A DNA stretch of 64,000 bases, taken from NCBI GenBank assembly GCA_021513695.1, contig CP084166.1, positions 480,001 to 544,000 of the forward strand, read 5' to 3'. The notes under the pieces were generated by a model that ran no database searches, had not been told where the DNA came from, and saw only the letters and a list, made by a program, of their open reading frames with translations. A program made the position numbers and the translations under genes. Positions 1,402 through 33,562 of the stretch are shown here, piece by piece (the stretch's first letter is position 1; each line of letters begins with the position of its first letter). This DNA comes from Candidatus Heimdallarchaeum aukensis (GTDB lineage: Archaea; Asgardarchaeota; Heimdallarchaeia; Heimdallarchaeales; Heimdallarchaeaceae).

Positions 1402-2976
1402 ATGGCTCGTATTACTCATATTGGACATGATAAAGGAATTTTGGAAGAAAAAAGACAAACAATACTTTCACTAAGAGAAAAGTCTCTAAAAGGTGGGGGA
1501 GAGGAAAAAATAGCCAGTCAACACAATAAAGGAAAGCTTACTGCGAGAGAGAGAATAGAATTATTGGTTGACGAAAATTCTTTTTGCGAAATAGATCAAA
1601 TAAGAAAATCTCAACATTCTGAATTAGAAATGGAAAAAATAGAAGGAGACGGTGTAGTAACAGGTTATGCAACTATTAATGGTAGACGAGTCTTTATTTA
1701 TAGTCAAGATTTTACCGTTTTGGGAGGAAGTTTAGGAAAAACTCACGCAAAAAAAATTTGTAAAGTTATGGATCTTGCTCTTCAGAGTGGGTGTCCTATA
1801 ATAGGGTTACTTGACTCTGGAGGAGCAAGAATTCAAGAAGGAATAGATTCTCTAGCTGGTTATGGTGAAATATTTTATAGAAATGTAATGAGTTCAGGGG
1901 TAATTCCCCAAGTTTCTATTATTTTGGGTCCTTGTGCTGGAGGAGCGGTCTATTCTCCTGCCCTAACTGATTTTATTATTATGAATCAAATTAATTCATT
2001 TATGTTTGTTACTGGCCCTCAAGTTGTTAAGACAGTTACCGGTGAAGATGTTTCATTCTATGATTTAGGAGGAAGTGAAGTACATAGTTCACTTAGCGGA
2101 GTAAGTCATTTAGTAGGAGAAGATGAAGAGGAAACGATAAATTTAGCTAAGAGACTCTTATCTTACCTTCCATCGAACAATTTAGATGACCCTCCACAAG
2201 AAATAGATGATATCGAAGAAAATGATCAAGATATTCTTTCTGATATTATTCCTGAGCAGGAAAATGAACCTTATGATATGAAAAAAGTAGTTGAAACAGT
2301 TTTAGACCAAGACAGTTTCTTTGAATTACAAGAAAATTGGGCAAAAAACATTATTGTTGGTTTCGGAAGATTAGAAGGTTTAACTGTCGGTATTATTGCA
2401 AACCAACCTTTATTTCTTGGAGGAGCTATAGAATATAATGCTGCGGATAAAGCAGCAAGATTTATTCGTTTTTGTGATTCATTTAACATCCCTATAATTA
2501 CTTTTGTTGATGTACCTGGTTTTATGCCAGGATTAAAACAAGAGGAAGAAGGAATAATTCGTCATGGAGCTAAAATGCTTTTTGCTTATTCAGAAGCTAC
2601 TGTCCCAAAACTTGCAGTAATAACAAGAAAAGCTTATGGAGGAGCTTATATTGTTATGAGCTCAAAGCATTTAGGAGCTGATATTAATTTTGCTTGGCCT
2701 ACAGCAGAAATAGCTGTCATGGGGGCAGAGGGAGCTTGTAATATTATTTATAGAAAAGAACTGAAAAAAGCTGAAAATCCAGAACAAGCTTTGCAAGATT
2801 TTGTTGTAAAATACAAAAAACAGTTCAGCAATCCTATTCGAGCAGCTGAGAAAGGATATGTTGACAAAGTTATTTTGCCTGAAGAAACAAGAATTGAACT
2901 TTCTAATGCCTTGAAATTTTTACAAAATAAAAGGATAGATACCCCGAAAAGAAAACACGGGAATATTCCACTTTAA
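1402..2976 (+). CDS. pccB: Acyl-CoA carboxylase carboxyltransferase (beta) subunit, PccB/AccD5/methylmalonyl-CoA decarboxylase-alpha family.
   Basis: 524 aa. The N-terminus MARITHIGHDKGILEEKRQTILSLREKSLKGGGEEKIASQHNKGKLTARERIELLVDENSF is the canonical propionyl-CoA carboxylase beta start. Two crotonase-fold CT halves are present (GGSLGKTHAKKICK..., ...ITFVDVPGFMPG...). Confidence 0.85.
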   Translation: MARITHIGHDKGILEEKRQTILSLREKSLKGGGEEKIASQHNKGKLTARERIELLVDENSFCEIDQIRKSQHSELEMEKIEGDGVVTGYATINGRRVFIYSQDFTVLGGSLGKTHAKKICKVMDLALQSGCPIIGLLDSGGARIQEGIDSLAGYGEIFYRNVMSSGVIPQVSIILGPCAGGAVYSPALTDFIIMNQINSFMFVTGPQVVKTVTGEDVSFYDLGGSEVHSSLSGVSHLVGEDEEETINLAKRLLSYLPSNNLDDPPQEIDDIEENDQDILSDIIPEQENEPYDMKKVVETVLDQDSFFELQENWAKNIIVGFGRLEGLTVGIIANQPLFLGGAIEYNAADKAARFIRFCDSFNIPIITFVDVPGFMPGLKQEEEGIIRHGAKMLFAYSEATVPKLAVITRKAYGGAYIVMSSKHLGADINFAWPTAEIAVMGAEGACNIIYRKELKKAENPEQALQDFVVKYKKQFSNPIRAAEKGYVDKVILPEETRIELSNALKFLQNKRIDTPKRKHGNIPL

Positions 2977-2997
2977 AATTATTAAGAGGAGAATTTT

Positions 2998-5900
2998 ATG
3001 AAAACTCTAAAAGAACTAAAAAATGAACTACAAATTAAATATCCAATTTTTGGATATAATCCTATCGGACTTGCTGATCCCACGTTAGCTATTGAAATCT
3101 CCAAACTTGGAGGAGTGGGATTAATTAACACTATTGGACTTGAACAAGAAGAACTAACTAAGATTCTTGATCAATGCGAACTTAATCTACCCACACAACT
3201 ATGGGGAATAAGGATTAACGATCTTTCTCACATTAAATGGATTAATCATGAACGAAGTATTCCAATCGTTATCCTACCGGAGAAACCTACAAGATTACAA
3301 CTGGATAAACTGCGTAAAATAAGTAAATTTATTGTCGCTGAAGTTTTATTTGTTGAAGAAGCAAAAAGTCATCTTGAATGGTCAGATTTCTTTTTAGTTA
3401 AAGGTATTGAAGCAGGAGGAAAAGTTGGTACAAAAGCTTCTTTTATTCAGATTCAAGAGTTTTATGAAACTGGATGGCCTTTTATCATTCAAGGAGGAAT
3501 GGGTGCTTTTAATATTAGTTCTGCTCTAATAGGAGGAGCAATAGGAGTAGTTTTTGAGGGACAATTATATCAATTTCCTGAATGTCCTCTTTCTGAAGAA
3601 GCGAAAAAGTATCTTGCTTCTTTAGGTGAAAATGATTCTTTCATTATCAATGAAAGTGGTAAAGAAGGTTACAGAATTTCTGGAAAACTAGCTAACAAAG
3701 CAATTAGAGAAATAAAACAACTAGAAGAAGAATCAAGTGAGGAAAAAATACTTGATAGAATTACTGAATTTGAAAAACCTCACGATCAATTTGGTTTTAA
3801 GAGTCAGAACATTAAACACGCATTTTTACCACTAGGTAACGATGTTTTCTTCTCCACATTCTTCAAGAAAAGATTTGGAAATTTAACAAATTTTGTGGAG
3901 CAAGCTCTTAAGATAGCTGATGAACAAATACAGATTGCTCTAAGAAATTGGCCTTTTGCAAAAGGTTCTACTTTATCCAACTTTCTAGGTACAAAATATC
4001 CTATTATTCAAGGCCCTATGGCTAATGTTTCTGATAATGTAGACTTTGCTATTAATGTAGCGAAAAATGGAGCTCTTCCTTTCTTAGCTTTGGGTGGATT
4101 ACTAAAAGAAGAAACTGAGGAGCTTTTTGATAAAGTTAGAGAAAGTGAACTTGTAAAATATTCCTATGGTTGTGGGATTATAGGTTTAGAAGCAGTTAAA
4201 CAAAGGAGAGAAGAGCACCTTTCTTTAATGAGAGATCTTAAACCTCCCTTTGCTTTGATTGCTGCTGGAACAGTTAATTTAGCTAAACAAGTACAAGAAA
4301 TGGGTTTTAAGACTTTATTACACACTCCCGCTCTATCAATGTTTAAAGATTCTATCAAAAATGGAATAGATTTACAAATTTTAGAAGGGAGTGAATGTGG
4401 AGGACATATTGGACTTCTTTCATCTTTTATTTTATGGGAAAGTATTTTGGAATTTTTAGATGAAAATAGAGAACAGATAGAAAAACCTTTGAAAATAGCT
4501 TTTGCAGGAGGGATATCTGACGGCACTAGTTCTGCGATGCTAGCAGTTATGATTGCTAAACATCTAGATATTATAGAATCAGCAATACAGATGGGTACAT
4601 CCTACTTATTTACTGAAGAGATTCTAGAAACAAAGGCTTTAACTGGATTTTATCAAGAACTTCTTCTTAATTCTAACTACACCAGAATTATAGGCTCAAC
4701 AGTAAATACTCGAGCACGAGCTGCTCCTTCACCTTTTGTAGATCAAACAATTAAAAGAGAAAGAGAGAGAATTAGACAAAAAATACCAATAAAAGAAAGA
4801 AAAGAACTTTACGAGAAAGATAATCTAGGAGCTTTAAGAATTGCAGCTAAAGCTGAAAAATGGAATAACGATCATGTTCCTGGTACTGCAACTACACAGT
4901 TTATAAAAATCGATGAAGAGGAACAGAAAAACTTTGGTTGCTTTATGGCTGGAGAAGTAATAGCAAAGAAACGTAGTATTTACAAGATAGATGACCTACA
5001 CTATGATATTTCAGTAATTGGAAAAGAAATCTTAGAAAAGCAATCAACTTCTATTGCTGATTATTTACTTTCAAAAGAAAAACTAGAAGCTTATGTTTCT
5101 AAAGAACAAAGTCCTCTAGTTATAGATAGTACTAATAAAATTGCTATAGTAGGAATAGGTAGTTTCTTCCCTGATGCTCCAAACACAGAAAAATTCTGGG
5201 AAAATATTGTTAACAAACATTATGCTGTAACTGAAGTACCTATTGAAAGATGGGATCCTAAATATTATTATGACGAAGATCGAACCGCTCCAGACAAGAC
5301 TTATACCAAAATTGGAGCGTTTGTAAAAGAATTTAAATTTAAACCTATTCAATTCAAGATTCCTCCTAAAGTAGCTGAAAAGATGGATGAAGTTCAGAAA
5401 TGGTCATTAATTGCTGCAAAAGAAGCTTTAGAAGATGCTGGAATACCCACAGATGGCAAGAAACGCCTACCTATAGGAGTAATTGTAGGCAATGCTTTAG
5501 GTGGAGAAAATCAGAGAATTACTAACAGGAGATTACACTATCCAGAAATTGAAGAACAACTAAAAATTTTATTAAGCTCAAAATTGTCTGATGAGGAAGT
5601 AGAAAAGTTTGTTTCTTCTTTCAAGAAAGAATATCTCAGTAAATACGCAGAGATTACAGAGGATACTATGCCTGGAGAATTATCTAATGTTGTTGCGGGA
5701 AGAATAGCCAATATATTCAATTTATCTGGTAAATCAATGACAACAGATGCTGCATGTGCTTCTTCTCTTGCTGCTCTGGACATTGCGGTAAAAAGTTTGT
5801 TGAATAACGATTTTGATACTATTCTTGTTGGCGGAGCAGATAGATCTATGGATGTTTCTTCTTATGTTAAATTCAGTAAGATCGGTGCTCTTTCTGCAAC

Positions 5901-7518
5901 TGGTTCTCGACCTTTTGATTCCAAGGCAGACGGTTTTGTAATGGGAGAAGGATGTGGTTTTCTTGTCTTGAAGAAATTGAAAAAAGCTATTGAAGACAAT
6001 GACAAAATTTATGCCATAATTGATTCTGTTGGTTCTTCCTCTGATGGTAAAGGAAAAGGAATTACTGCTCCTAATCCTTTAGGACAAAAAGAAGCTATTG
6101 AAAGAGCTCTTGAACAAGCTAAAGTTTCTCCTTCTGAGATAGATTTAATTGAAGCACATGGAACTTCCACCATAGTAGGAGATAAAACAGAAGTTCAAGT
6201 TTTAAATGAGATTTTCACAGAAAAACAAAAAGAAAGAAAAAGGAAAATAGCTCTTGGTTCAATTAAAAGCCAAATTGGTCATTTAAAGAGCGCAGCAGGT
6301 ATAGCTTCTGTTATAAAAGTAGCTTTAGCTCTTGACAAGAAAATTCTTCCACCAACGATAAATGTTCAAGAACTTAATCCTGCGATTGATTGGAATAATT
6401 CTAATCTTTTTGTTAATCTTGATGCTCAACCATGGGAAAAGGTTGATAACTCTATCAGAAGAGCAGGAGTTTCTGCTTTTGGTTTTGGAGGAACAAATTA
6501 TCATACAATCTTGGAAGAATATATTCCAGAAGCACAGTACATAGAAAAAGAAAAGCAACCAATAGTTGAACTAAAAGAACAAAAAGAAGAAGTTTGCTTC
6601 CTTTATACTGGACAAGGAAGTCAATATTTAGGCATGATAAAGGAACTTTATGATAATTATCCAACTGTTAGAAAAACAATAGATGAAGCTTCAGTTATTG
6701 CTAAAGAGAGTTTAAATGCTGATTTGCGTGAAATAATTTTTGGTTCACCTCAACTTTCCAAAGTTGAAAATGAGGAAAGATTAAGACAAACAGAATACAC
6801 TCAACCTTCTCTCTTTGTAGTCGAAGTTGCTTTAACTAGATTATTGAAAGAAAAAGGAATTGAGCCTACAAGAGTAGCTGGACATAGTTTAGGAGAATAT
6901 ACTGCTTTAGTTGCTGCGGGAGTGTTCTCTTTTGAAGATGGATTAAAAGCTGTAATAGAAAGAGGAAAAGCGATGGCAAAAGCTTCTAAAAGTATCCCTG
7001 GAGCAATGGCAGCTATTCTTACATCTCAAGAAAAAGTTAAGGAAATTATAGAAAAGGTAAATGAAGGTTATATAACAGTAGCCAATTATAACTCATTAAA
7101 CCAAACAGTGATTTCGGGAGAAGAAAAAGCTGTAAACAAAGCTATAGAACTTTTCTCTGCAAGAAAAATAAAAGCAATAAAATTAAATGTTTCAACAGCT
7201 TTTCATTCTATTATTGTTAAAGATGCAGAAATAGAAATGGAGAGAGTGCTTAACAGCCTGACTTACAATAAACCTTCAATTCCTGTCTATTCAAATGTAA
7301 CGGGAAGTTTGTACCCTGACAAACCCTCTAAAATTAAAGAACTTCTAATTAATCAGCTCTGTAATTCTGTTCAATGGGTTAAGATTTCAGAAATGGTCAT
7401 TAATTGCTGCAAAAGAAGCTTTAGAAGATGCTGGAATACCCACAGATGGCAAGAAACGCCTACCTATAGGAGTAATTGTAGGCAATGCTTTAGGTGGAGA
7501 AAATCAGAGAATTACTAA
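2998..7518 (+). CDS. PKS/FAS-like megasynthase, 5' segment: FMN-dependent enoyl reductase (nitronate monooxygenase/FabK/PfaD-like) - ketosynthase (KS) - acyltransferase (AT). The last ~45 codons are out of frame because of the 1993-bp tandem duplication.
   Basis: ER: YPIIQGPMANVSD...ALPFLALGG...GSECGGHIG (about 3990-4700), preceded by a degenerate NPD-like half. KS (about 5140-6520): IAIVGIGSFFPDAPNTEKFWENI, active-site TDAACASSLAAL, EAHGTSTIVGDKTE, GSIKSQIGHLKSAAG. AT (6590 onward): GQGSQ, GHSLGEYTA, TAFHS (malonyl-type). The frame breaks at 7385/7386 and the tail VINCCKRSF... is nonsense. Confidence 0.8.
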   Translation: MKTLKELKNELQIKYPIFGYNPIGLADPTLAIEISKLGGVGLINTIGLEQEELTKILDQCELNLPTQLWGIRINDLSHIKWINHERSIPIVILPEKPTRLQLDKLRKISKFIVAEVLFVEEAKSHLEWSDFFLVKGIEAGGKVGTKASFIQIQEFYETGWPFIIQGGMGAFNISSALIGGAIGVVFEGQLYQFPECPLSEEAKKYLASLGENDSFIINESGKEGYRISGKLANKAIREIKQLEEESSEEKILDRITEFEKPHDQFGFKSQNIKHAFLPLGNDVFFSTFFKKRFGNLTNFVEQALKIADEQIQIALRNWPFAKGSTLSNFLGTKYPIIQGPMANVSDNVDFAINVAKNGALPFLALGGLLKEETEELFDKVRESELVKYSYGCGIIGLEAVKQRREEHLSLMRDLKPPFALIAAGTVNLAKQVQEMGFKTLLHTPALSMFKDSIKNGIDLQILEGSECGGHIGLLSSFILWESILEFLDENREQIEKPLKIAFAGGISDGTSSAMLAVMIAKHLDIIESAIQMGTSYLFTEEILETKALTGFYQELLLNSNYTRIIGSTVNTRARAAPSPFVDQTIKRERERIRQKIPIKERKELYEKDNLGALRIAAKAEKWNNDHVPGTATTQFIKIDEEEQKNFGCFMAGEVIAKKRSIYKIDDLHYDISVIGKEILEKQSTSIADYLLSKEKLEAYVSKEQSPLVIDSTNKIAIVGIGSFFPDAPNTEKFWENIVNKHYAVTEVPIERWDPKYYYDEDRTAPDKTYTKIGAFVKEFKFKPIQFKIPPKVAEKMDEVQKWSLIAAKEALEDAGIPTDGKKRLPIGVIVGNALGGENQRITNRRLHYPEIEEQLKILLSSKLSDEEVEKFVSSFKKEYLSKYAEITEDTMPGELSNVVAGRIANIFNLSGKSMTTDAACASSLAALDIAVKSLLNNDFDTILVGGADRSMDVSSYVKFSKIGALSATGSRPFDSKADGFVMGEGCGFLVLKKLKKAIEDNDKIYAIIDSVGSSSDGKGKGITAPNPLGQKEAIERALEQAKVSPSEIDLIEAHGTSTIVGDKTEVQVLNEIFTEKQKERKRKIALGSIKSQIGHLKSAAGIASVIKVALALDKKILPPTINVQELNPAIDWNNSNLFVNLDAQPWEKVDNSIRRAGVSAFGFGGTNYHTILEEYIPEAQYIEKEKQPIVELKEQKEEVCFLYTGQGSQYLGMIKELYDNYPTVRKTIDEASVIAKESLNADLREIIFGSPQLSKVENEERLRQTEYTQPSLFVVEVALTRLLKEKGIEPTRVAGHSLGEYTALVAAGVFSFEDGLKAVIERGKAMAKASKSIPGAMAAILTSQEKVKEIIEKVNEGYITVANYNSLNQTVISGEEKAVNKAIELFSARKIKAIKLNVSTAFHSIIVKDAEIEMERVLNSLTYNKPSIPVYSNVTGSLYPDKPSKIKELLINQLCNSVQWVKISEMVINCCKRSFRRCWNTHRWQETPTYRSNCRQCFRWRKSENY

Positions 7519-9378
7519 CAGGAGATTACACTATCCAGAAATTGAAGAACAACTAAAAATTTTATTAAGCTCAAAATTGTCTGATGAGGAAGTAGAAAAG
7601 TTTGTTTCTTCTTTCAAGAAAGAATATCTCAGTAAATACGCAGAGATTACAGAGGATACTATGCCTGGAGAATTATCTAATGTTGTTGCGGGAAGAATAG
7701 CCAATATATTCAATTTATCTGGTAAATCAATGACAACAGATGCTGCATGTGCTTCTTCTCTTGCTGCTCTGGACATTGCGGTAAAAAGTTTGTTGAATAA
7801 CGATTTTGATACTATTCTTGTTGGCGGAGCAGATAGATCTATGGATGTTTCTTCTTATGTTAAATTCAGTAAGATCGGTGCTCTTTCTGCAACTGGTTCT
7901 CGACCTTTTGATTCCAAGGCAGACGGTTTTGTAATGGGAGAAGGATGTGGTTTTCTTGTCTTGAAGAAATTGAAAAAAGCTATTGAAGACAATGACAAAA
8001 TTTATGCCATAATTGATTCTGTTGGTTCTTCCTCTGATGGTAAAGGAAAAGGAATTACTGCTCCTAATCCTTTAGGACAAAAAGAAGCTATTGAAAGAGC
8101 TCTTGAACAAGCTAAAGTTTCTCCTTCTGAGATAGATTTAATTGAAGCACATGGAACTTCCACCATAGTAGGAGATAAAACAGAAGTTCAAGTTTTAAAT
8201 GAGATTTTCACAGAAAAACAAAAAGAAAGAAAAAGGAAAATAGCTCTTGGTTCAATTAAAAGCCAAATTGGTCATTTAAAGAGCGCAGCAGGTATAGCTT
8301 CTGTTATAAAAGTAGCTTTAGCTCTTGACAAGAAAATTCTTCCACCAACGATAAATGTTCAAGAACTTAATCCTGCGATTGATTGGAATAATTCTAATCT
8401 TTTTGTTAATCTTGATGCTCAACCATGGGAAAAGGTTGATAACTCTATCAGAAGAGCAGGAGTTTCTGCTTTTGGTTTTGGAGGAACAAATTATCATACA
8501 ATCTTGGAAGAATATATTCCAGAAGCACAGTACATAGAAAAAGAAAAGCAACCAATAGTTGAACTAAAAGAACAAAAAGAAGAAGTTTGCTTCCTTTATA
8601 CTGGACAAGGAAGTCAATATTTAGGCATGATAAAGGAACTTTATGATAATTATCCAACTGTTAGAAAAACAATAGATGAAGCTTCAGTTATTGCTAAAGA
8701 GAGTTTAAATGCTGATTTGCGTGAAATAATTTTTGGTTCACCTCAACTTTCCAAAGTTGAAAATGAGGAAAGATTAAGACAAACAGAATACACTCAACCT
8801 TCTCTCTTTGTAGTCGAAGTTGCTTTAACTAGATTATTGAAAGAAAAAGGAATTGAGCCTACAAGAGTAGCTGGACATAGTTTAGGAGAATATACTGCTT
8901 TAGTTGCTGCGGGAGTGTTCTCTTTTGAAGATGGATTAAAAGCTGTAATAGAAAGAGGAAAAGCGATGGCAAAAGCTTCTAAAAGTATCCCTGGAGCAAT
9001 GGCAGCTATTCTTACATCTCAAGAAAAAGTTAAGGAAATTATAGAAAAGGTAAATGAAGGTTATATAACAGTAGCCAATTATAACTCATTAAACCAAACA
9101 GTGATTTCGGGAGAAGAAAAAGCTGTAAACAAAGCTATAGAACTTTTCTCTGCAAGAAAAATAAAAGCAATAAAATTAAATGTTTCAACAGCTTTTCATT
9201 CTATTATTGTTAAAGATGCAGAAATAGAAATGGAGAGAGTGCTTAACAGCCTGACTTACAATAAACCTTCAATTCCTGTCTATTCAAATGTAACGGGAAG
9301 TTTGTACCCTGACAAACCCTCTAAAATTAAAGAACTTCTAATTAATCAGCTCTGTAATTCTGTTCAATGGGTTAAGAT
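5393..9378 (+). repeat. Perfect direct tandem duplication, 2 x 1993 bp (5393-7385 and 7386-9378), running from mid-KS to the end of AT inside the megasynthase gene.
   Basis: Direct sequence comparison gives a constant offset of 1993. Identical antisense ORFs at 5538-5783 = 7531-7776 and 6325-6558 = 8318-8551 confirm it. Unit length is 3x664+1, so the reading frame shifts at the junction. Confidence 0.9.
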
Positions 9379-12300
9379 AATTGAAGAGATGTATAACGAT
9401 GGAGGAAGAATTTTTGTAGAAGTAGGACCTAAAAAAGCATTGTACAACTTTGTTAAAGATATTTTAGGTGAAAAAGAAGACATTCAAACTTTTCTTACAT
9501 TAAACCCGAAAGTAGGAGAGTTAAAATCTTTTAATGATACTGTCTCTAAATTAAAAATGAGCAAAAGAAGAGAAACCGAAACCCCAGTTCAAACTAAAGA
9601 AAAAATAGTTTACAAAGAATCAGCACTAGATGTTTTACTTAAAAATAAAGAGATTAACAACTTGGTCTCTAAACCCTATTTCCGTGAGTATTTGAAAGAG
9701 AACAGCAATCTTCTTTCATCTATAATGAAACAAGGTTACGAGCAGTTCTCAAAGTACAGAGAATCATTGGTTATTGCTGAAAAAGCTAAATATTGGGATA
9801 TAAACTTTGATCTTATTGGTGTTACTGGTGTTGGAATTGGTCTCCCAGGAAAGAATAGAGCTGTTTTCTCTGATGATAATTTTGATCTTATTCTCAATGG
9901 AACAAATCTTATCGAATCTGTTGAAGATACAATAAAACAAGAAACTTTAGACAAAAACATCGTTAGGTTAGTTAAATCTCCTGATGGTAATGCAACTTTT
10001 GAAGCAATTGACGATATAAGTAAAGTTATTCAACTTGCAGCACAGATAGGAGAATTAAACTTCAAAGAATTAGGTATAGAAGATAAATTGGCTAAAGCTT
10101 TAGACTCCACTTTTATTATGGCTATAGGTGCAGGACTAGAAGCGTTGAAAGATGCTGGTATTCCTCTTGTTGAAAGCAAAATAGTTACTTCAACTGGAAA
10201 AACTTTGAAAGGGAGCTGGACTTTACCAGAATCCTTACAACATGATACTGGAATAGTTTTTGCTTCTGCTTTTCCCGGATATGATAATTTAGTAGATGAA
10301 GTAACAAGACATCTTGTAGCTAAATTTGAAAACAAAACTAATAAAGAGATTGAGGAGATATTTGAGCAATTAATTAATGTTGTATCAAACCCTGAAGCAA
10401 AAGAAGAGATCTCTAACTGGTTCTTGGAGAAACAATCTCTACTGGAAGAAAAAGAAGAAAAGTATACTTTTAGTAGAGAGTTCCTTTACAAAGTTTTGTC
10501 TATGGGGCACTCTCAATTTGCCCAATTTATTAAAGCTAAAGGTCCGAATACTCAAGTCAATGCTGCTTGTGCTTCTACAACCCAAGCAATTGGTGTAGCA
10601 GAAGATTGGATAAGAACTGGAAGATGTAAGAGAGTAATAGTAATAGCTGGAGACAATGCTGCAAGCAAGAATCTGTTACCTTGGATAGGTGGGGGATTCT
10701 TAGCAGCTGGGGGAGTAACCACAAAAGCCGATGTTAAAGAAGCTGCTTTACCTTTTGGAAAAGAAAGACATGGATTAATTATAGGTTCAGCTTCTGCAGG
10801 TCTTGTAATTGAAAGCAGAGAATCCTATGAAGAAAGAGGAGTTAAACCAATAGTAGACCTTGTGGGTACTTATATGGCAAATAGTGCTTATCATGGTTCT
10901 AGATTAGATGTCAACCATATTTCTGAAGAACTTGAAAGCTTTATTGAAAAAGTAGAAAGAAGATATAATATCGACAGGAAAAATATCGCTAAAGAAGGTA
11001 TTTTTGTCTCTCATGAAACTTATACACCTGCAAGAGGAGGAAGTGCAGAAGCAGAAATTCAATCACTTCTTAATGTTTTCAAAGAAGATGCTTATTCTAT
11101 GACCATAATAAACACAAAAGGATTTACAGGTCATTCAATGGGTGCAGGAATAGAAGAAGCTGTAGCTATTAAAGCAATAGAAAAAGGTAAGATTCCTCCA
11201 ATTGCTAACATAGAGAAACTTGACCCTGCCTTTTCTAAATTTAAGTTCTCAAAAGGAGAAAAGAGAAGATTTTCCTTCGCTTTGAGATTAGCAGCTGGAT
11301 TTGGGTCACAATTAGCTTTTGCTCTCTTCAGGTTAAATACTTACGACAACAGATTCTCTGCCCAATACAATGAATGGCTCAAGAGTCTTGGTGGTGGCAA
11401 AGAAGAGTTATTTGTTGAAGGCAGAGTACTTAAACTCAAAACAGATAATAAGAAAAAACAAGCTGATTTAGTTAAGAAACCAGCAGTACAAAAAACTGTT
11501 GAAAAGAAAATTAAAACTGTTACAAAAGCACCTACAGATATTCTTCAAGTTGTAAAAGATATTATTTCTGAAAAAACAGGTTATGAAACAGAAGTCATTG
11601 AAGAAAATATGCATTTAGAAGAAGATCTTGGGATTGACAGTATTAAAGCAGCAGAAATAATGAACGATATTAGCGATAAATGGTCAATACCTCAAGAAAA
11701 ACTCTTCGAACAATTTGATATCGATACACCAGGAAAAATTGCAAAGTTCATTTCTGAAAACACAAGCGCTCCTGAAGAGACAAGTTATTCAGTTGAAACA
11801 ACTGTAGCAAAAGAGGAAGTAAAAAGAGCAGAAACTTCTAGTGTTTCAACAGGAGATATTTTAGTGCGAATTAAAGAAGTAATTGGAAAACACACAGGTT
11901 ATGACATTCAAGATCTAGATGAAAACTATGACCTAGAAGAAGATCTGGGAATAGATACAGTAAAACAAGCAGAAATTTTTGGAGATTTAAGAGATTTATT
12001 CGGATTGGATTTAGATGAGACTTATGCTTTAGCAGATTATCGAACAATAGCTGACATTGCCCAAGCAATATCTACAGAGAAACCAGTGGAAAAGGTTAAA
12101 CAAGTGGAAACTGAAGAAAGCGGAGAGATTAGAACAGCACAACAACCAACAATCATATCTGAAGCTGAAAGTTCAATTTCCAGAGAAGAAGTTACAAAAG
12201 AAGTGCTTTCAATTATCTCAGAAATTACAGGATACGATACAGAAGATATAGAAATAGAGATGGATCTAGAGGAAGATTTGGGTGTTGATAGTATCAAGAT

Positions 12301-15300
12301 TGCTGAAATTCTAAGCTCTTTGGGAAGTAAGTTCGACCTTGAATTTGATGAGATGTCTGATCTTTCAGGAATTAGAAATACAGAAGATATAGTGGAAGCA
12401 GTGATAAAAATTAAGCAATCCATTGAACAAACTCAAACCCCAACCAAAACAGAAGAACAATTAGCTGTAAGTCAAAAACTTAAAGTTGAACAAGAAGAAG
12501 AAATAGTTATTCGTAGTGTAGAACCTGTTCTAAAGCCTTTAGAACAAAGTGAAGTAAATAAATTTAATCTAGAAGATAAAAATCTCTTACTTCTAGATAT
12601 TCATTCAAAAGAAGCCAAATATATCTATTCTTTACTTGAACAGAAGAAGGCTAAAATTGAGCTTGTTAGGATTAATTCTGAAGACTCAGAAAAACCAAAT
12701 AATAATAAATATGACTTAATCTTAATCTTATTACCAGATGATCACAATTCTGCAAATGATACTAAATACTTTGAGCAACTATTTCTTACCCTACAACAGC
12801 TAGAGTACAATCATAATACTAAGATTGTTTCTTACTCTGTTGAAGACTATTTAGACTCTAAAAAGGAGATAATTCCTTTAAGTGGAGGTATATCCGCTTT
12901 TGTTAAGACTATTGGTCAAGAATTTGAACTAGACATTAAACATGTTTATTCCACAAAACCTGAAGAACTAGTTACAGAGTTGGAAAATTGGGATAAAAAC
13001 CTTGAAGTTATTTATTCAGAGGGTAAAAGATACATTTTCAGTCACATGAGAAAAATACCTCTAGAACAATTACAAAAAGAAAAAATCGAACTTACAGAAG
13101 ATGATCTTATACTTGTTACTGGAGGAGCAAGAGGTATCACTTATGAATGTATTAAAGAACTTACAAAAGATGCTAAACCTTCAATTGCTATCGTTGGTAG
13201 AACTAAACTTCCAGAAGATGTATCTGAATTGCTCTTCTTAACCGACAAAGAAATAGCAAACAAAAAAGAAGAGATAAAAGAAAAACTTGCTCAAGAAAAT
13301 GAAAAAGTTACTCCAGTGATGATAGAAAAAGCTTGGAAACGCTTCCTAAACACTGTTGAAATTGCAAAGAATATTCTCTATTTAATTGAAAATGAAGTGA
13401 ATGCTAACTATTATTCTGCAGATGTTTCAGATGAAGAACAAATGAAAAGTGTTTTGAGTCAAATTGAAGAAGATTTCGAAAAAACTATAACTCTTATTGT
13501 ACATGGTGCGGGAATAGAAGAATCTAAAGCTTTCAAGAAAAAGAAACTAGAAATGGCAAAGAAAATAGTACAAGTAAAGATTTCAGGGTTATACAATATT
13601 CTAAATAATATAGATCAATCTAATTTGAAGAAGATCATCTGCTTTAGCTCAATTGCAGGAAGATTTGGTAATAGAGGACAAGTGGATTATGCTTTTGCAA
13701 ATGGTTATCTAGCTAGAACATGCTGGAAGTTTAAACAACAAGGAATTAACGCTCTAGCTATAGATTGGTCAGCTTGGGCAGATATAGGCATGGCAACACA
13801 AGGTTCTATTCTTAAAGTGCTGAAAGCTGCAGGAATAACTCCCATTCCATTAAAAGAAGGAATAAGAATATTTTCTGAACTAACCAATTACAATGTAGAA
13901 CAAAGTGAATTAATAGTTGCAGGAAAACTTGGACTTCTTCTAAAAGAAATAGAAGATAAAAAAACAAGTGGTCAACACGATACTAGTATGAACACAGAGA
14001 GTTATCCAATGATTGATGAAATTAGAAAAACAGACAACGGTTTTATTGCTTCAAAGACACTAAAATATGATTATGACTTATACATGAGAGATCATCAAAT
14101 CCAAGGATTGCCAATATTTCCTGCAGTAATGGGATTAGAATTCTTCGCTGAGATGTTCAAACTTACAACAGAAAAAGATGTTTACGCAATAGCAGAAGTA
14201 TCGTTTAGAGAAGCAATTAAACAGTTTAAGAACAAAAATGTTGAACTTCAATGTTCATTTGATACAGAAAGAGGGGATATGGAAATTAAAACAATCTTTA
14301 CAGACATTAAAGGAGTTCAAAAAGAAAAGAAACACTTCTTCTGTAAGTCTGTAAAAGATACGACAGAAAAAAGCTATAAGAAAAAGAAGATAGAAAAAAG
14401 AGTGATACCACTACTTTCCAAAGAAGTGATCTATCAGCTTTTCTTCCATGGTCCAAGTTTTCAAGTTTTGGAGAATTTGAATGAGATAAAAGGAAATATC
14501 ATCTCCACTAATGTCCAGATTCCAAATCTGCCTTTATTCAAAGATGAAGAATTGAAAACTATTCTCGTTCCTCGAGCAATAGAAGCGGCTTTACAGACAG
14601 CAGGGTTGTATGACATGTTCATTAACAATGTTGTTTCATTGCCATCAAAAATAAAAAACTTGGAAGTATACAAGGAAACAGAAGCTGTTTTTGCTGAAGC
14701 TGAATTCCTAAAGATAGAGGAAAGACATAGTTTCTTCAATGTAAAGATTTACGATGCTGAAGGAGAAGTAATAATGGTTTTAGAACAACTAGGAATGATA
14801 CATACTTCTATGCCCATAAATTTGGACGAAAAAGGAAAGAAACTCTTCCAGATGATTAAAGGATATCATGAAATAAGAACAAAAGTAGATGACGAAAAAG
14901 TAGCTGTTTTACCTATTCACAAAGTAGTAGAAGAATACAGAAAAAATAGACAAGAACTAGAAAATAAACTAGTTGCTTACGAAAAAACAAGATTTACTAA
15001 AATATCCAACGAAAAAAGAAAAATGGAATATTTAGCGGGAGTAATCCTTGCTAAAGAACTTTTTTCCAAATATGAAAACATTACCGATTTCAGAAGTATA
15101 GAAATAAAAAAGAAGAGTAAGGGGCAACCTTACTTTTTCAACAGACAACTAAAAGAAGAAACGGATTGGTATGTTTCTATTAGTCATTCAAATGATTTCG
15201 CTGTAGTCTCTATTGAGAAACAACCAGTAGGAATAGACATAGAAAAAGTAGAAGAAAGAAGTAAAAGTTTCTATGGCGAAGTTTTTTCAGATTATGAATT

Positions 15301-15538
15301 ATCAAAAATTGCTGATGACCATACTTTAGGAACAAAATATTGGACTGCTAAAGAGTCATTAACTAAAGCATTAGGAGAAGGATTACATATTAAACTAAAA
15401 GAAATTGAGTTTGGTTACAACGATGGCAAATTTGATCTAAAAAAATATCCTTCTTCTCTAAAACAAGATCAATTGCAGACTTCTATTGAATCTATTGAAG
15501 CAGCAGGTTATGTTGTTTCTAAATGTGTAATAAAATAA
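7577..15538 (+). CDS. PKS/FAS-like megasynthase, 3' segment: duplicated partial KS - AT - second KS - three tandem ACPs - ketoreductase - dehydratase - C-terminal Sfp/EntD-type 4'-phosphopantetheinyl transferase domain.
   Basis: TTG start inside the repeated KS. AT copy at 8583-9440. KS2 (about 9780-11350): IGVTGVGIGLPG, NAACASTTQAIG, SHETYTPARGG, GHSMGAGIEEA...IPP. ACPs: LEEDLGIDSIKAAEIM (about 11620), LEEDLGIDTVKQAEIF (about 11935), LEEDLGVDSIKIAEIL (about 12265). KR: LVTGGARGITYE (about 13110) and YAFANGY. DH hot-dog: HQIQGLPIFPAVMGLEF (about 14090). PPTase: ...VSISHSNDFAVVSIEKQPVGIDIEKVEE...WTAKESLTKALGEG (15000-15538). Confidence 0.8.
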   Translation: MSDEEVEKFVSSFKKEYLSKYAEITEDTMPGELSNVVAGRIANIFNLSGKSMTTDAACASSLAALDIAVKSLLNNDFDTILVGGADRSMDVSSYVKFSKIGALSATGSRPFDSKADGFVMGEGCGFLVLKKLKKAIEDNDKIYAIIDSVGSSSDGKGKGITAPNPLGQKEAIERALEQAKVSPSEIDLIEAHGTSTIVGDKTEVQVLNEIFTEKQKERKRKIALGSIKSQIGHLKSAAGIASVIKVALALDKKILPPTINVQELNPAIDWNNSNLFVNLDAQPWEKVDNSIRRAGVSAFGFGGTNYHTILEEYIPEAQYIEKEKQPIVELKEQKEEVCFLYTGQGSQYLGMIKELYDNYPTVRKTIDEASVIAKESLNADLREIIFGSPQLSKVENEERLRQTEYTQPSLFVVEVALTRLLKEKGIEPTRVAGHSLGEYTALVAAGVFSFEDGLKAVIERGKAMAKASKSIPGAMAAILTSQEKVKEIIEKVNEGYITVANYNSLNQTVISGEEKAVNKAIELFSARKIKAIKLNVSTAFHSIIVKDAEIEMERVLNSLTYNKPSIPVYSNVTGSLYPDKPSKIKELLINQLCNSVQWVKIIEEMYNDGGRIFVEVGPKKALYNFVKDILGEKEDIQTFLTLNPKVGELKSFNDTVSKLKMSKRRETETPVQTKEKIVYKESALDVLLKNKEINNLVSKPYFREYLKENSNLLSSIMKQGYEQFSKYRESLVIAEKAKYWDINFDLIGVTGVGIGLPGKNRAVFSDDNFDLILNGTNLIESVEDTIKQETLDKNIVRLVKSPDGNATFEAIDDISKVIQLAAQIGELNFKELGIEDKLAKALDSTFIMAIGAGLEALKDAGIPLVESKIVTSTGKTLKGSWTLPESLQHDTGIVFASAFPGYDNLVDEVTRHLVAKFENKTNKEIEEIFEQLINVVSNPEAKEEISNWFLEKQSLLEEKEEKYTFSREFLYKVLSMGHSQFAQFIKAKGPNTQVNAACASTTQAIGVAEDWIRTGRCKRVIVIAGDNAASKNLLPWIGGGFLAAGGVTTKADVKEAALPFGKERHGLIIGSASAGLVIESRESYEERGVKPIVDLVGTYMANSAYHGSRLDVNHISEELESFIEKVERRYNIDRKNIAKEGIFVSHETYTPARGGSAEAEIQSLLNVFKEDAYSMTIINTKGFTGHSMGAGIEEAVAIKAIEKGKIPPIANIEKLDPAFSKFKFSKGEKRRFSFALRLAAGFGSQLAFALFRLNTYDNRFSAQYNEWLKSLGGGKEELFVEGRVLKLKTDNKKKQADLVKKPAVQKTVEKKIKTVTKAPTDILQVVKDIISEKTGYETEVIEENMHLEEDLGIDSIKAAEIMNDISDKWSIPQEKLFEQFDIDTPGKIAKFISENTSAPEETSYSVETTVAKEEVKRAETSSVSTGDILVRIKEVIGKHTGYDIQDLDENYDLEEDLGIDTVKQAEIFGDLRDLFGLDLDETYALADYRTIADIAQAISTEKPVEKVKQVETEESGEIRTAQQPTIISEAESSISREEVTKEVLSIISEITGYDTEDIEIEMDLEEDLGVDSIKIAEILSSLGSKFDLEFDEMSDLSGIRNTEDIVEAVIKIKQSIEQTQTPTKTEEQLAVSQKLKVEQEEEIVIRSVEPVLKPLEQSEVNKFNLEDKNLLLLDIHSKEAKYIYSLLEQKKAKIELVRINSEDSEKPNNNKYDLILILLPDDHNSANDTKYFEQLFLTLQQLEYNHNTKIVSYSVEDYLDSKKEIIPLSGGISAFVKTIGQEFELDIKHVYSTKPEELVTELENWDKNLEVIYSEGKRYIFSHMRKIPLEQLQKEKIELTEDDLILVTGGARGITYECIKELTKDAKPSIAIVGRTKLPEDVSELLFLTDKEIANKKEEIKEKLAQENEKVTPVMIEKAWKRFLNTVEIAKNILYLIENEVNANYYSADVSDEEQMKSVLSQIEEDFEKTITLIVHGAGIEESKAFKKKKLEMAKKIVQVKISGLYNILNNIDQSNLKKIICFSSIAGRFGNRGQVDYAFANGYLARTCWKFKQQGINALAIDWSAWADIGMATQGSILKVLKAAGITPIPLKEGIRIFSELTNYNVEQSELIVAGKLGLLLKEIEDKKTSGQHDTSMNTESYPMIDEIRKTDNGFIASKTLKYDYDLYMRDHQIQGLPIFPAVMGLEFFAEMFKLTTEKDVYAIAEVSFREAIKQFKNKNVELQCSFDTERGDMEIKTIFTDIKGVQKEKKHFFCKSVKDTTEKSYKKKKIEKRVIPLLSKEVIYQLFFHGPSFQVLENLNEIKGNIISTNVQIPNLPLFKDEELKTILVPRAIEAALQTAGLYDMFINNVVSLPSKIKNLEVYKETEAVFAEAEFLKIEERHSFFNVKIYDAEGEVIMVLEQLGMIHTSMPINLDEKGKKLFQMIKGYHEIRTKVDDEKVAVLPIHKVVEEYRKNRQELENKLVAYEKTRFTKISNEKRKMEYLAGVILAKELFSKYENITDFRSIEIKKKSKGQPYFFNRQLKEETDWYVSISHSNDFAVVSIEKQPVGIDIEKVEERSKSFYGEVFSDYELSKIADDHTLGTKYWTAKESLTKALGEGLHIKLKEIEFGYNDGKFDLKKYPSSLKQDQLQTSIESIEAAGYVVSKCVIK

Positions 15539-15572
15539 TATGGAGATTAAAAAAAAAAAAAGGTGATAATAT

Positions 15573-16334
15573 ATGTTACAACTGAATTATGATATAAAAT
15601 TTAGAAAGGATTTCATTCATGGAATTCTTTATTTGCCGGATGAAGAGGGGCAGTTCCCTTTAGTTATAAGATTGAACGGTTTTCCGGGCAATTCTCCAGA
15701 AAAAGAAGAACAAAGATTAGCAGATATTATCACCCAGAATAATATGGCTTTTTATGCCTTTGACTATGTAGGAGTAAGAAAAAGTACAGGGACATTTAAT
15801 TATTATACGAGTTTGGAAAACATAAATACTGTTATAACAGATTTATCACATCATCCTCGAATTAATCCTGCAAAGATTGCTCTTCTTGGAGAAAGCTTCG
15901 GAGGAGCAATGGCAATAAGCCAAGGAGTAAGAGACCAAAGAATAAAATGTATTGTTTTAAGGTCTCCTGTATATGATACTGAAGTTATTCCTCAAATACC
16001 GTCTTTTAATACTTTAGTTAAAATATGGTCCAGAAACAATCAAATACGTTTCCCTAAAGGAGACATAAGTGAATTATACTACAAACAAACTAATCTTTAC
16101 AATCCTAAAAAAATAGCAAATTTAGTTAATTGCCCCGTAAAATTGATTGCAGGAGATAAAGATGAGTTGTTGGAAGTTAAGGGTTTTAGAGAACTTTACA
16201 AATGTTTACCACGGAAACTAAGAAAAGGAATTGATATCATTAAAGGAGCAGATCATAACTTTACTAAACAAAAACAGTTTATAGAATTAAAGAGTGAACT
16301 TTCCAGCTTTTTGACTTGTTGCCTTTTAGGGTAA
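15573..16334 (+). CDS. Alpha/beta-fold hydrolase (dienelactone hydrolase/esterase-like); candidate thioesterase for the megasynthase.
   Basis: 253 aa. GxSxG nucleophile elbow LLGESFGGAMA, a later Asp (AGDKDE) and His (GADHNF). The start sits 35 nt after the megasynthase stop. Confidence 0.55.
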   Translation: MLQLNYDIKFRKDFIHGILYLPDEEGQFPLVIRLNGFPGNSPEKEEQRLADIITQNNMAFYAFDYVGVRKSTGTFNYYTSLENINTVITDLSHHPRINPAKIALLGESFGGAMAISQGVRDQRIKCIVLRSPVYDTEVIPQIPSFNTLVKIWSRNNQIRFPKGDISELYYKQTNLYNPKKIANLVNCPVKLIAGDKDELLEVKGFRELYKCLPRKLRKGIDIIKGADHNFTKQKQFIELKSELSSFLTCCLLG

Positions 16335-16346
16335 ATAACTTATGGA

Positions 16347-16838
16347 GTGCAAAAGATGAAGAAAAAAATAATCTACAACAATGAAGAATACATAATAGAA
16401 GCTAAAGGAGAAGACGAGATAGTAGTGAATAATAAGACTTTCAAAGTTAACTTAAAAGAGAAAAACAAGAATTTTTTCAATATAGAAATTCAAGGAAAGA
16501 AGTTTATTATAGAAGTAAGAGAAGGAGAATTCTATTTAGACGGAGAGAAAATAGAAAAATTATCAATTAGCCCCTATTTTCCACAATTAAAGAAACAAAA
16601 ACAAATGATTAACTCTCAAAAAGAAGTAGTAAAAGCACCTATACCAGGAACTATAACTCAAATACTAGTTAAAGAAGGAGATACAGTAAAAAAAGACCAA
16701 GAATTATTTATCCTTGAAGCGATGAAAATGAGAAATAGAATCTTAACAACCATTGACAAAGGTGTAGTAAAAAAAATCTACGTTAGCGAGAATGAAACTG
16801 TATCTCAAGATCAAAAACTAGCTATAATTGAAAATTAA
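16347..16838 (+). CDS. accB: Biotin carboxyl carrier protein (BCCP, biotinyl/lipoyl domain).
   Basis: C-terminal biotinyl domain with EAMKM (the biotinylated Lys in FILEAMKMRNRI). 163 aa. Confidence 0.75.
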   Translation: MQKMKKKIIYNNEEYIIEAKGEDEIVVNNKTFKVNLKEKNKNFFNIEIQGKKFIIEVREGEFYLDGEKIEKLSISPYFPQLKKQKQMINSQKEVVKAPIPGTITQILVKEGDTVKKDQELFILEAMKMRNRILTTIDKGVVKKIYVSENETVSQDQKLAIIEN

Positions 16839-17073
16839 ATAAAAAAATAACAAAACAAATTTATTGCAAAAATAATTTAAAATTCGCACAAATATTTGGA
16901 TACTTCTTCTTTTTTAAATTCAAATTTTATCAAAAACTTGAAAAGAATGCTAAATAGTCTATTTTTTAAATAAATAGGAAACAAAAAAAGTTTAGACTAA
17001 GTGGTTAGTTTTTGAAGTATAAATGAGGAGAAATAGGAACTGTATAATTTAAAGAAGAATAAAAAAAATAGGA

Positions 17074-17661
17074 CTAATCAACCATAAGTTTGGGAAATTT
17101 TGAAAGTTCCATTAATTTCATGAATTTTTTTCCTTTCTTAAAAATAGTATCTATACATTCAATTATTATATCCAAAAGCTCTTCTACTTTTTCTTTTTTT
17201 ACAGGTTTTAGTCCATGAGCAAGTATTGATTCATTTCTCTCTTTTAAAAGGTCTTTCATTTTGTTGGATGAAGAAAACATTTTCCCAAGATCATCATTCA
17301 AATCGTCTAAAACTAGATAACAATCATATAATCCCAACTTTACTTTTGAACCATTACTTTTTCTTTCTTTGAAATAACTTATACGTTGAGAAGAAACTCC
17401 TAACTTTTCTAATTGCTCTAAGGATATGTCATGGGGAGGTAAATTGTAGGCACTCTTTAATCTATACTGTGCCATAAGTTCTACAGCTCTGTAGAGCCTA
17501 GCCATTGCATCATCAAACTTTTCTTCTTTTAATCGACGTTTTGCGTTATTTAATAAATCTGCAAGAAAATAAAGGTCTTTCTCTATTTTTTTATCACTTT
17601 TATGTAACAAGTCGCACAAAAATTCTTTATTAAAACTATATTCTTTGCCAAGCTGTTTCAT
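17074..17661 (-). pseudogene. Duplicated 3' fragment of csx1 (HEPN half only) created by the 2.7-kb tandem duplication.
   Basis: Identical to the C-terminal 195 aa of the 409-aa Csx1 at 19770-20999. Lacks the CARF domain. The upstream frame is replaced by the repeat junction. Confidence 0.55.
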
Positions 17662-17679
17662 TTTATCAAAAGCTTCTTT

Positions 17680-18234: not shown

Positions 18235-18269
18235 TATGGAGATTAAAAATAAAAAAAAGGTGATAATAT

Positions 18270-19031: not shown

Positions 19032-19043
19032 ATAACTTATGGA

Positions 19044-19517: not shown

Positions 19518-19769
19518 CTATAATTGAAAATTAAATAAAAAAATAACAAAACAAATTTATTGCAAAAATAATTTAAAATTCGCACAAATATTTGGATACT
19601 TCTTCTTTTTTAAATTCAAATTTTATCAAAAACTTGAAAAGAATGCTAAATAGTCTATTTTTTAAATAAATAGGAAACAAAAAAAGTTTAGACTAAGTGG
19701 TTAGTTTTTGAAGTATAAATGAGGAGAAATAGGAACTGTATAATTTAAAGAAGAATAAAAAAAATAGGA

Positions 19770-20999: not shown

Positions 21000-21111
21000 G
21001 GTAAACCACTAACTAACTTTTAAAATAATTAAATCAAAATTTTTAAGCGTTACTAAAAACAAATATGTAAATAAAGCAATTACAAGGTAAAAATCCGTCA
21101 TCTTACTCAAC

Positions 21112-33541: not shown

Positions 33542-33562
33542 TTTAACTTTTGTAAGTTATTT

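Follow-up and report, generated by a model that had tools for sequence, protein, structure and literature searches.

A probable type-I fatty acid synthase in a carboxylase operon of the Asgard archaeon Candidatus Heimdallarchaeum aukensis

We analysed a 64,000-nucleotide stretch of the archaeon Candidatus Heimdallarchaeum aukensis (GenBank assembly GCA_021513695.1, contig CP084166.1, positions 480,001 to 544,000 of the forward strand), referred to below as the window, whose main feature is a giant gene for a type-I megasynthase lying among genes for a biotin-dependent carboxylase. Our reading, which we hold to be probable, is that this megasynthase is an iterative, fully reducing fatty acid synthase (FAS) of type I, belonging to the PfaA/ArsA superfamily, that makes long saturated acyl chains within a self-sufficient operon. 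The original prediction, made from the DNA letters, had proposed a giant single-gene synthase of the polyunsaturated fatty acid (PUFA) type in an Asgard-like genome. Pfam and orthologues bear out the single giant gene, the order of its domains and the fused phosphopantetheinyl transferase (PPTase), and a type-I synthase in an Asgard archaeon is supported by the domains and by a closed genome. The PUFA assignment did not hold up, as is argued below.

The megasynthase gene

In the deposited window the gene appears as two plus-strand open reading frames (ORFs), 2998-7518 (1,506 aa) and 7577-15538. Comparison of the window with itself shows a tandem duplication in which 5393-7385 equals 7386-9378, 1,993 bp at 100% identity and not a multiple of 3 in length, and when 7386-9378 is deleted a single ORF of 3,515 aa runs from 2998 to 15538. 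This ORF does not depend on our editing alone, because L003, a 13.6-kb Illumina contig (run SRR15988954) and thus an independent short-read assembly, is the window minus 7386-9378 at 100% identity. It stays open without a stop for 3,326 codons, every residue matching the de-duplicated megasynthase, which confirms the single reading frame that the original prediction had obtained by discounting the duplication. For the H. aukensis genome, Illumina contigs were joined into scaffolds by means of Nanopore reads obtained after multiple displacement amplification (MDA) (PMC8813620). An artefactual duplication fits this procedure, and the 1,993-bp repeat that splits the gene is probably an assembly artefact, one that hides the gene from automated annotation. 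The ratio of nonsynonymous to synonymous substitution (dN/dS) against L001, a 94%-identical relative, is 0.18 over 1,237 codons; the megasynthase is kept under purifying selection.

From its N-terminus the protein consists of a pseudo-enoyl reductase, a FabK-like enoyl reductase (ER), a ketosynthase (KS1), a malonyl-type acyltransferase (AT), a FabF-like second ketosynthase (KS2), three acyl carrier proteins (ACPs), a ketoreductase (KR), a dehydratase (DH) and an Sfp-type PPTase. The features of the gene are as follows.

2998-3927, plus strand: ERn, degenerate FabK-like barrel, aa 1-310 (FabK TIGR03151 44 bits; GGH changed to GG[KLMR])
3955-5067, plus strand: FMN TIM-barrel ER, FabK-like, aa 320-690 (QGPMA and ECGGH motifs; FabK model 65 bits)
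5110-6387, plus strand: KS1, type-I polyketide synthase (PKS)/PfaA-like, aa 705-1130 (Pfam; Cys917 and two His)
6580-7385, plus strand: AT, first part, aa 1195-1462 (Pfam Acyl_transf_1; GHSLGE, TAFHS)
7386-9378, plus strand: second copy of the exact 1,993-bp duplication (self-comparison; missing from L003)
9379-9520, plus strand: AT, remainder, to aa 1510 (continuation after the second duplication copy)
9803-11380, plus strand: KS2, FabF-like, aa ~1605-2130 (FabF TIGR03150 135 bits; PDB FabF matches at ~1e-23)
11528-11764, plus strand: ACP1, LGIDSIKAAE, Ser type (Pfam PP-binding)
11852-12076, plus strand: ACP2, LGIDTVKQAE, Thr at the attachment site (typical of the clade)
12188-12406, plus strand: ACP3, LGVDSIKIAE, Ser type (Pfam PP-binding)
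12668-13810, plus strand: KR with its structural subdomain, TGGARGI and Ser...YAFAN (Pfam KR 109 bits)
13958-14860, plus strand: DH, PKS-type double hot-dog, His in DHQIQ, and IEAALQ (Pfam PKS_DH_N; motifs conserved)
14948-15538, plus strand: fused Sfp-type PPTase, then the stop codon (Pfam AASDHPPT_N and ACPS)

A Pfam search, which the original prediction had named as its check, recovered KS, AT, ACP, KR, DH and PPTase domains, with all matches above cut-offs (NMO in three stretches, KS N- and C-terminal parts twice, KAsynt_C_assoc, AT, PP-binding three times, KR, PKS_DH_N, AASDHPPT_N and ACPS). The motifs that it had quoted (DAACASS, NAACAST, GHSLGE, TAFHS, TGGARGI, YAFAN, HQIQGLPIFP, GIDIE and WTAKESLTK) are also all present. 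Its description of the carriers stands in part: there are three ACPs in tandem, but D-S is found only in ACP1 and ACP3, ACP2 having D-T in its place. Its PfaD-type ER has to be given up, the domain being FabK-like (65 bits, versus 17 bits for PfaD, whose cut-off is 449).

At the N-terminus are two FabK-like barrels, the first of them without the catalytic His. In the motif alignment this His is missing from all 8 orthologues, and the barrel is probably a structural pseudo-enzyme domain. The Asgard orthologues all keep this barrel, and it can be detected in most bacterial loci described below. PfaA (NCBIfam TIGR02813) is the best-scoring model for the KS-AT piece (697 bits) and, with its C-terminal region, for the KR-DH piece (293 bits); the megasynthase was scored in pieces, each below the model's cut-off of 1010 bits. 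The AT scores 253 bits against FabD TIGR00128 (cut-off 261), and its GHSLGE and TAFHS motifs indicate malonyl specificity. In KS2 the Cys-His-His triad is intact and a long insertion is present N-terminally, and its motifs are kept in the 8 orthologues. Indeed the active-site motifs are all conserved in the 8 full-length Asgard orthologues (41-51% identity to the window protein), and the PPTase fusion is found in all 8 of them as well as in L001. No thioesterase domain was found within the megasynthase.

The carboxylase operon

The genes around the megasynthase are the strongest contextual clue to its function, and this is a point that the original prediction had missed. The features concerned are listed here.

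3-503, plus strand: PlsY-like glycerol-phosphate acyltransferase, 3' part (Pfam G3P_acyltransf 66.6 bits; PlsY TIGR00023 124 bits, cut-off 137)
542-1288, minus strand: biotin protein ligase, BirA-like (Pfam BPL_LplA_LipB)
1402-2976, plus strand: acyl-CoA carboxylase carboxyltransferase (beta) subunit (Pfam Carboxyl_trans 628 bits; 21 nt upstream of the megasynthase)
15573-16334, plus strand: alpha/beta hydrolase with a GESFGG nucleophile elbow (Pfam Hydrolase_4; nearest solved structures are esterases)
16347-16838, plus strand: biotin carboxyl carrier protein (BCCP) (Pfam Biotin_lipoyl; NCBIfam BCCP models)
16884-35857, no strand: island of ~19 kb, absent from a 94%-identical relative, between the BCCP and biotin carboxylase genes
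35862-37442, minus strand: biotin carboxylase subunit (Pfam; NF006367 623 bits, cut-off 597)

The set of parts for a biotin-dependent carboxylase, putatively of acetyl-CoA, is complete, with the domains of biotin carboxylase, BCCP, carboxyltransferase and biotin ligase all present in the window, and the intergenic gaps are 12-34 nt. The order biotin ligase, carboxyltransferase, megasynthase, hydrolase, BCCP, biotin carboxylase is the same wherever Asgard contigs reach, in Heimdall, Hod and the Promethearchaeota/Loki lineage, and its first three genes also stand in this order in L004, a Thor locus with an N-terminal megasynthase fragment. Of the 12 Asgard loci examined, 11 have the carboxyltransferase gene immediately upstream of the megasynthase, and the other (L013) begins inside the megasynthase gene. 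A biotin ligase is found upstream of the cluster in L004, L007-L010, L012, L015 and L016, and nearby in L014. Biotin carboxylase adjoins BCCP in L005, L007-L010, L012, L014 and L015, and is within the cluster where the Asgard contigs extend that far. The alpha/beta hydrolase, correctly predicted to follow the megasynthase immediately, is next to it or within the cluster in the Asgard loci that reach this point, and was not found in the bacterial loci compared. We regard it as a candidate chain-release or transfer enzyme.

The PlsY-like gene, whose full length of 242 aa is visible in L003, deserves more caution. An opposite-strand gene stands between it and the operon, and it lies beside the cluster only in Heimdallarchaeum, no PlsY match being seen in the other loci examined. 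We rejected this linkage as strong evidence, since PlsY falls outside the transcription unit of the cluster and adjoins it in Heimdallarchaeum alone.

The Thor locus (L004; metagenome-assembled genome, MAG, GCA_048882645.1) has at 1425-7251, directly upstream of the biotin ligase, carboxyltransferase and megasynthase genes, the genes for an acyl-CoA dehydrogenase, two thiolases and the electron transfer flavoprotein alpha and beta subunits, so that genes of beta-oxidation type adjoin the synthase there.

Asgard orthologues and bacterial relatives

The window is archaeal, as had been predicted. Nine of 10 window proteins that were looked up are exact matches to Ca. Heimdallarchaeum aukensis records (lineage Archaea; Promethearchaeati; Heimdallarchaeota), on a closed chromosome of 3,081,793 bp, while the tenth, the biotin carboxylase as delimited here, had no exact match. 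The same neighbour genes occur in Ca. H. endolithica, a sister species. The window also encodes an archaeal Nre, GTPases of the Arf and Ras families, an aldehyde:ferredoxin oxidoreductase (AOR) and a type III-B CRISPR-Cas module, which confirms the archaeal neighbourhood noted before as regards small GTPases, AOR and Cmr. The GC content of the megasynthase gene, 0.32-0.35, is close to that of its surroundings. Syntenic full-length orthologues occur in Heimdall, Hod and Promethearchaeota MAGs, with an N-terminal fragment in a Thor MAG. The full-length proteins, that of the window included, are single ORFs of 3,350-3,574 aa, and the others are 41-51% identical to the window protein.

Most of these relatives came from a scan of one genome per species, which gave at least 592 loci encoding an ER-KS relative; the Thor MAG and one further Heimdall MAG came from a protein search (query aa 1-684, matches up to ~1,200 aa). 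The ten best of the at least 592 loci are Asgard MAGs (Heimdall, Hod, Promethearchaeota and unclassified archaea) at 44-56% identity, and the remaining loci among these matches are bacterial, at 32-37%. What the window protein has in common with this set is an N-terminal FabK-like ER fused to a PfaA-like KS-AT, then ACP(s) and KR, and further downstream DH and PPTase; the direct comparison was with the Azotobacter ars-type operon and with Desulfobacterales proteins. On these features we assign the megasynthase to the PfaA/ArsA superfamily of "secondary lipid synthases", among the ER-first Types P and S.

The bacterial loci fall into two architectures. The widespread class B has ER-KS-AT-ACP-KR followed by further genes carrying DH and PPTase, and includes arsABCD, an operon of Azotobacter beijerinckii in which there are two genes for type III PKSs. 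Class A, from Desulfobacterales and a few Bacteroidales and Spirochaetia, has a single giant protein ordered ER-KS-KS'-AT-KS2-ACPn-KR-DH, and probably corresponds to "Type S", described from Desulfobacterium autotrophicum HRM2 (now Desulforapulum), with which we equate it from the species name of locus L075. In a neighbour-joining tree of ER, KS1 and AT (79 sequences, 1,035 columns, 100 bootstraps) the Asgard clade, class A, and the two joined together each have a bootstrap of 100/100. Although this tree alone gives no direction of transfer, the wider family is bacterial, and for this reason transfer from bacteria to Asgard archaea is the economical reading. Most likely an Asgard ancestor acquired the system from bacteria, from a lineage that also gave rise to the giant synthases of Desulfobacterales type.

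Carriers of the Thr type

A feature of this clade that had escaped the original prediction is the use of Thr at the attachment position of the carriers. The motif LGIDT[VI]KQ[AV]E is found in 21/21 ACPs of the other Asgard orthologues (L007-L016) and in 36/36 class A ACPs (L019-L083). The class B (Ars/Hgl-like) ACPs have Ser (LGIDSIK...) in 44/44. The window megasynthase is itself mixed (Ser, Thr, Ser, thus one of three with Thr), as is its 94%-identical relative. The Thr of ACP2 aligns with the phosphopantetheinyl-Ser of PigH, AcpM and ACP, which are carrier proteins of solved structure; a homology search with a short ACP query returned one match. The strict conservation of the motif suggests that these carriers are functional, which would imply attachment to Thr, and the Thr-type carriers may then be phosphopantetheinylated. 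No report of Thr-linked phosphopantetheine was found in our literature search, and to our knowledge phosphopantetheinylation on Thr has not been described so far. The Thr-type carriers, which occur also in a large clade of uncharacterised synthases from sulfate reducers, raise a biochemical question of their own that can be tested separately.

Proposed function

If the megasynthase is a FAS, the operon suggests how it could work. The biotin ligase would activate BCCP, and biotin carboxylase with the carboxyltransferase would convert acetyl-CoA to malonyl-CoA. The FabD-like AT would then load malonyl groups onto the tandem carriers, primed by the enzyme's own C-terminal PPTase. Condensation would be carried out by KS1 and the FabF-like KS2, after which KR, DH and the FabK-like FMN ER would take each beta-keto group to a methylene, that is to full reduction. 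Repeated cycles would give a long, straight, saturated acyl chain, and since the synthase is without a thioesterase domain, the downstream alpha/beta hydrolase may be what releases or transfers it. We favour a saturated product because the domain set is complete for full reduction and its order is that of ArsA plus ArsD. With the carboxylase, the biotin ligase, the PPTase and the hydrolase all brought by the operon, the whole could amount to a self-contained fatty acid factory. The chain length, the part played by KS2 and the destination of the product, whether a membrane ester lipid via PlsY or another lipid, can be suggested more loosely.

There are several points which weigh against this reading. 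The case for FAS function is drawn from sequence and context, and in a cultured Asgard archaeon only archaeal lipids were found, by a method that may have missed ester lipids (PMC13400652). PlsC is missing according to the H. aukensis genome analysis (PMC8813620). PlsX was not seen in the window, though PlsY needs acyl-phosphate, and the adjacency of PlsY is itself limited to Heimdallarchaeum. The top model for the carboxyltransferase is of the methylmalonyl-CoA decarboxylase type, which makes its acyl-CoA specificity tentative. The second KS has no explained role, and the carriers of the other Asgard orthologues all have Thr instead of the canonical Ser. Finally, relatives in this family often make accessory ("secondary") lipids and not bulk membrane fatty acids (PMC3098273).

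Alternative explanations

This last point leads to the alternative that survives best, although we think it unlikely: the enzyme would make the alkyl part of an accessory lipid or of a polyketide-like metabolite, for example a chain that is very long or bears hydroxy or keto groups, destined for a glycolipid, wax, hydrocarbon or signalling compound, and not general membrane fatty acids. The characterised members of the family (Ars, Hgl and Pfa) all make specialised long chains (PMC3098273), the two KSs could set an unusual chain length, and both the archaeal lipids reported so far from cultured Asgard archaea (PMC13400652) and the reported absence of PlsC (PMC8813620) agree with it. However, the conserved Asgard cluster is without tailoring genes, type III PKS, glycosyltransferase or Ole genes and has carboxylase parts and a hydrolase only, and the sister Type S has been proposed as a core FAS. 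The chemistry in this case would overlap with that of our preferred FAS reading, and only the fate of the product differs.

We consider it very unlikely that the megasynthase is a Pfa-like synthase making polyunsaturated fatty acids anaerobically, as the original prediction suggested. That idea is understandable given the tandem ACPs, the best scores of the KS-AT (697 bits) and KR-DH (293 bits) pieces against PfaA TIGR02813, and a Shark Bay study in which Heimdall KS domains were nearest to PUFA KSs (PMC7472256). But the PfaA scores of the pieces, each taken by itself, fall below the family cut-off of 1010, the ER is not of the PfaD family (TIGR02814, 16.8 bits against a cut-off of 449, with FabK at 65 bits), and neither the protein nor the cluster genes include a FabA-type dehydratase/isomerase or a chain length factor (CLF). 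The active-site Cys is retained in KS2, which is therefore no CLF, and ArsA, the closest characterised relative, makes saturated chains. With no FabA-type enzyme, CLF or PfaD-family ER, the protein has the domains of a synthase that carries out full reduction, and we rejected the PUFA assignment.

A further problem could lie in the state of the gene, which would be a dead pseudogene if the 1,993-bp tandem duplication were genuine. The duplication and its frameshift do stand in the deposited sequence, and an exact look-up found no protein record for the 1,506-aa product. Against this, the Illumina contig from the same sample crosses both boundaries uninterrupted and is otherwise 100% identical, the genome was scaffolded with MDA-amplified Nanopore reads, a second duplication in the window has homopolymer indels of the long-read type, and dN/dS is 0.18. 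Given the intact ORF in L003 and this ratio, we find a pseudogene hardly credible and rejected it.

That bacterial DNA was misplaced in an archaeal bin or assembly is so improbable as to be negligible and was rejected, for although the wider family is overwhelmingly bacterial (most of the at least 592 loci), the host is a closed 3.08-Mb chromosome with flanking proteins from Heimdallarchaeum, the GC content matches the surroundings, the 11 Asgard sequences including that of the window form a clade with 100% support, and genes for Nre and for Arf and Ras GTPases are on the same contigs.

Other features of the window

The operon is interrupted in the window by the ~19 kb at 16884-35857, which we read as an inserted island because L001, from a 94%-identical strain, runs from the megasynthase C-terminus with its PPTase through the hydrolase and BCCP genes and then at once into the biotin carboxylase gene, joining window positions 16883 and 35858. 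The island carries a STAND NTPase with TPR repeats and a P-domain protein in addition to Csm6 (CARF-HEPN), type III-B Cmr genes (Cmr2/Cas10 and Cmr3) and RAMP proteins. The window showed no CRISPR array, and Tandem Repeats Finder gave no arrays.

A second tandem duplication, of ~2.7 kb, pairs 14992-17692 with 17688-20388 with one mismatch and two gaps, and leaves the megasynthase uninterrupted. Its unit spans the 3' end of the PPTase, the hydrolase, BCCP and a truncated Csm6, the second copy lying within the island, and it is represented by a separate Illumina contig, L002. Each copy has a 1-nt homopolymer deletion relative to L002 (at 15553 and 19465), and the second of these frameshifts BCCP copy 2. 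An exact look-up of the 184-aa junction ORF found no protein match.

Further along the window, Arf-family (162 bits, 53960-54523, minus strand) and Ras/Rab-family (158 bits, 59001-59561, minus strand) GTPases flank the AOR gene (54616-56808). Small GTPases of the Arf/Ras type are typical eukaryotic-signature proteins of Asgard archaea. A pair of TldD/PmbA metallopeptidase paralogues lies in tandem next to a 1,136-aa protein with a Big_7 (bacterial Ig-like) domain (38612-41398, minus strand; 41537-44947, plus strand). An ORF at 50614-51312 (plus strand) has weak similarity to an integrase core (rve) and is flanked by ORFs without a family match; it may be a mobile-element remnant.

Significance and previous reports

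Archaea are textbook non-users of ACP-dependent fatty acid synthesis, and the origin of fatty-acyl ester membranes from an archaeal ancestor of eukaryotes is an open problem. A complete type-I FAS operon equipped with ACPs, PPTase and carboxylase, present in several Asgard classes and on a closed chromosome, would be a concrete candidate for the source of the acyl chains. The gene can be expressed and its product assayed, so that fatty acid synthesis in the archaea closest to eukaryotes can be put to a direct test.

One could go further and suppose that Heimdall, Hod, the Promethearchaeota/Loki lineage and probably Thor make fatty acids de novo, that in Heimdallarchaeum the chains pass via the hydrolase and PlsY into ester glycerolipids, and that the Thr carriers are phosphopantetheinylated by the fused PPTase. 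Taken as a whole we find this extension doubtful and offer it as speculation, but if true these archaea would be living carriers of a mixed membrane, the missing "lipid divide" step in eukaryogenesis.

The existence of the gene is already on record. A survey of mat metagenomes reported PKS in a Heimdall MAG with KSs nearest to PUFA KSs (PMC7472256), and a cold-seep survey, inferring biosynthetic gene cluster types for several phyla of archaea, among them Asgardarchaeota, had PKSs in its list. Reviews and genome papers have noted that Asgard archaea possess homologues of PlsY and PlsC. The H. aukensis genome paper treats ester-lipid genes and the absence of PlsC, not the megasynthase (PMC8813620), and no synthase is mentioned in a review and a PlsY study that both date from 2026. 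In the literature that could be searched no dedicated Asgard fatty acid synthase is named, and there was no match for a Loki PUFA synthase or for Heimdall fatty acid biosynthesis from malonyl-CoA. As far as this search goes, there is no description of what the gene is, of the operon it lies in, of its conservation across Asgard archaea or of its Thr carriers.

Comparison with known systems

Among the well-known type-I systems, fungal FAS has an FMN TIM-barrel ER and its own PPTase, and animal FAS has an ER of the medium-chain dehydrogenase/reductase (MDR) type and a thioesterase domain. The megasynthase resembles the fungal, CMN (Corynebacterium-Mycobacterium-Nocardia) bacterial and animal FAS-I in being type-I and fully reducing, but differs in domain order and in KS/AT lineage, and its FAS matches in the PDB are weak and confined to the KR. 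Enediyne PKSs (PKSE) have KS-AT-ACP-KR-DH-PPTase used iteratively, with no ER and no second KS, and make conjugated polyenes with a hot-dog thioesterase partner. Here the likeness, judged by domain architecture, is in KS-AT-ACP-KR-DH with a C-terminal fused PPTase.

The PUFA synthases (PfaABCDE of bacteria and their thraustochytrid counterparts) resemble the megasynthase in a PfaA-like KS-AT-ACPn-KR-DH backbone, tandem ACPs, an ER of the TIM-barrel class and an Sfp-type PPTase. The megasynthase differs from them in being without the PfaC-type KS-CLF and FabA-like dehydratase/isomerase pair, in having an ER that is FabK-like and fused in cis instead of PfaD, and in its fused PPTase.

The class A synthases of Desulfobacterales type are the sister clade (100/100) and are single polypeptides of 3,572-4,018 aa. 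The fusion into a single polypeptide, which the original prediction had pointed out, is thus real here but is not restricted to archaea. Both groups also have a FabF-like KS2 (37-44% identity) and tandem ACPs with the Thr motif LGIDTVKQ[AV]E. Class A has one more KS-like domain, which may be a CLF, placed after KS1 and before AT, and this domain is absent from the window protein and all Asgard orthologues; class A also differs in a PPTase fusion that is not universal, and in having no adjoining carboxylase, BCCP or hydrolase genes. Shulse and Allen proposed Type S as a possible core FAS of D. autotrophicum.

The closest characterised relative, judged by architecture and identity, is the Ars system (Azotobacter arsABCD, the "Type P" of Shulse and Allen). 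It differs in having one Ser-type ACP, no FabF-like KS2 and no link to carboxylase genes or a hydrolase, and its chalcone-synthase-like type III PKSs (ArsB/ArsC), which are present in locus L037, were not found among the annotated window ORFs or beside the synthase in the Asgard loci. The likeness extends over a double FabK-like ER, KS, AT, ACP and KR, then DH and PPTase, in the same order but split in two in Ars (ER-KS-AT-ACP-KR, then DH-PPT), with 25-41% identity to the window protein over ERn, ER, KS, AT and KR. In papers that cite the original Ars studies, ArsA is described as an iterative, fully reducing FAS that makes long saturated chains of C22-C26 (PMC4824345, PMC3098273).

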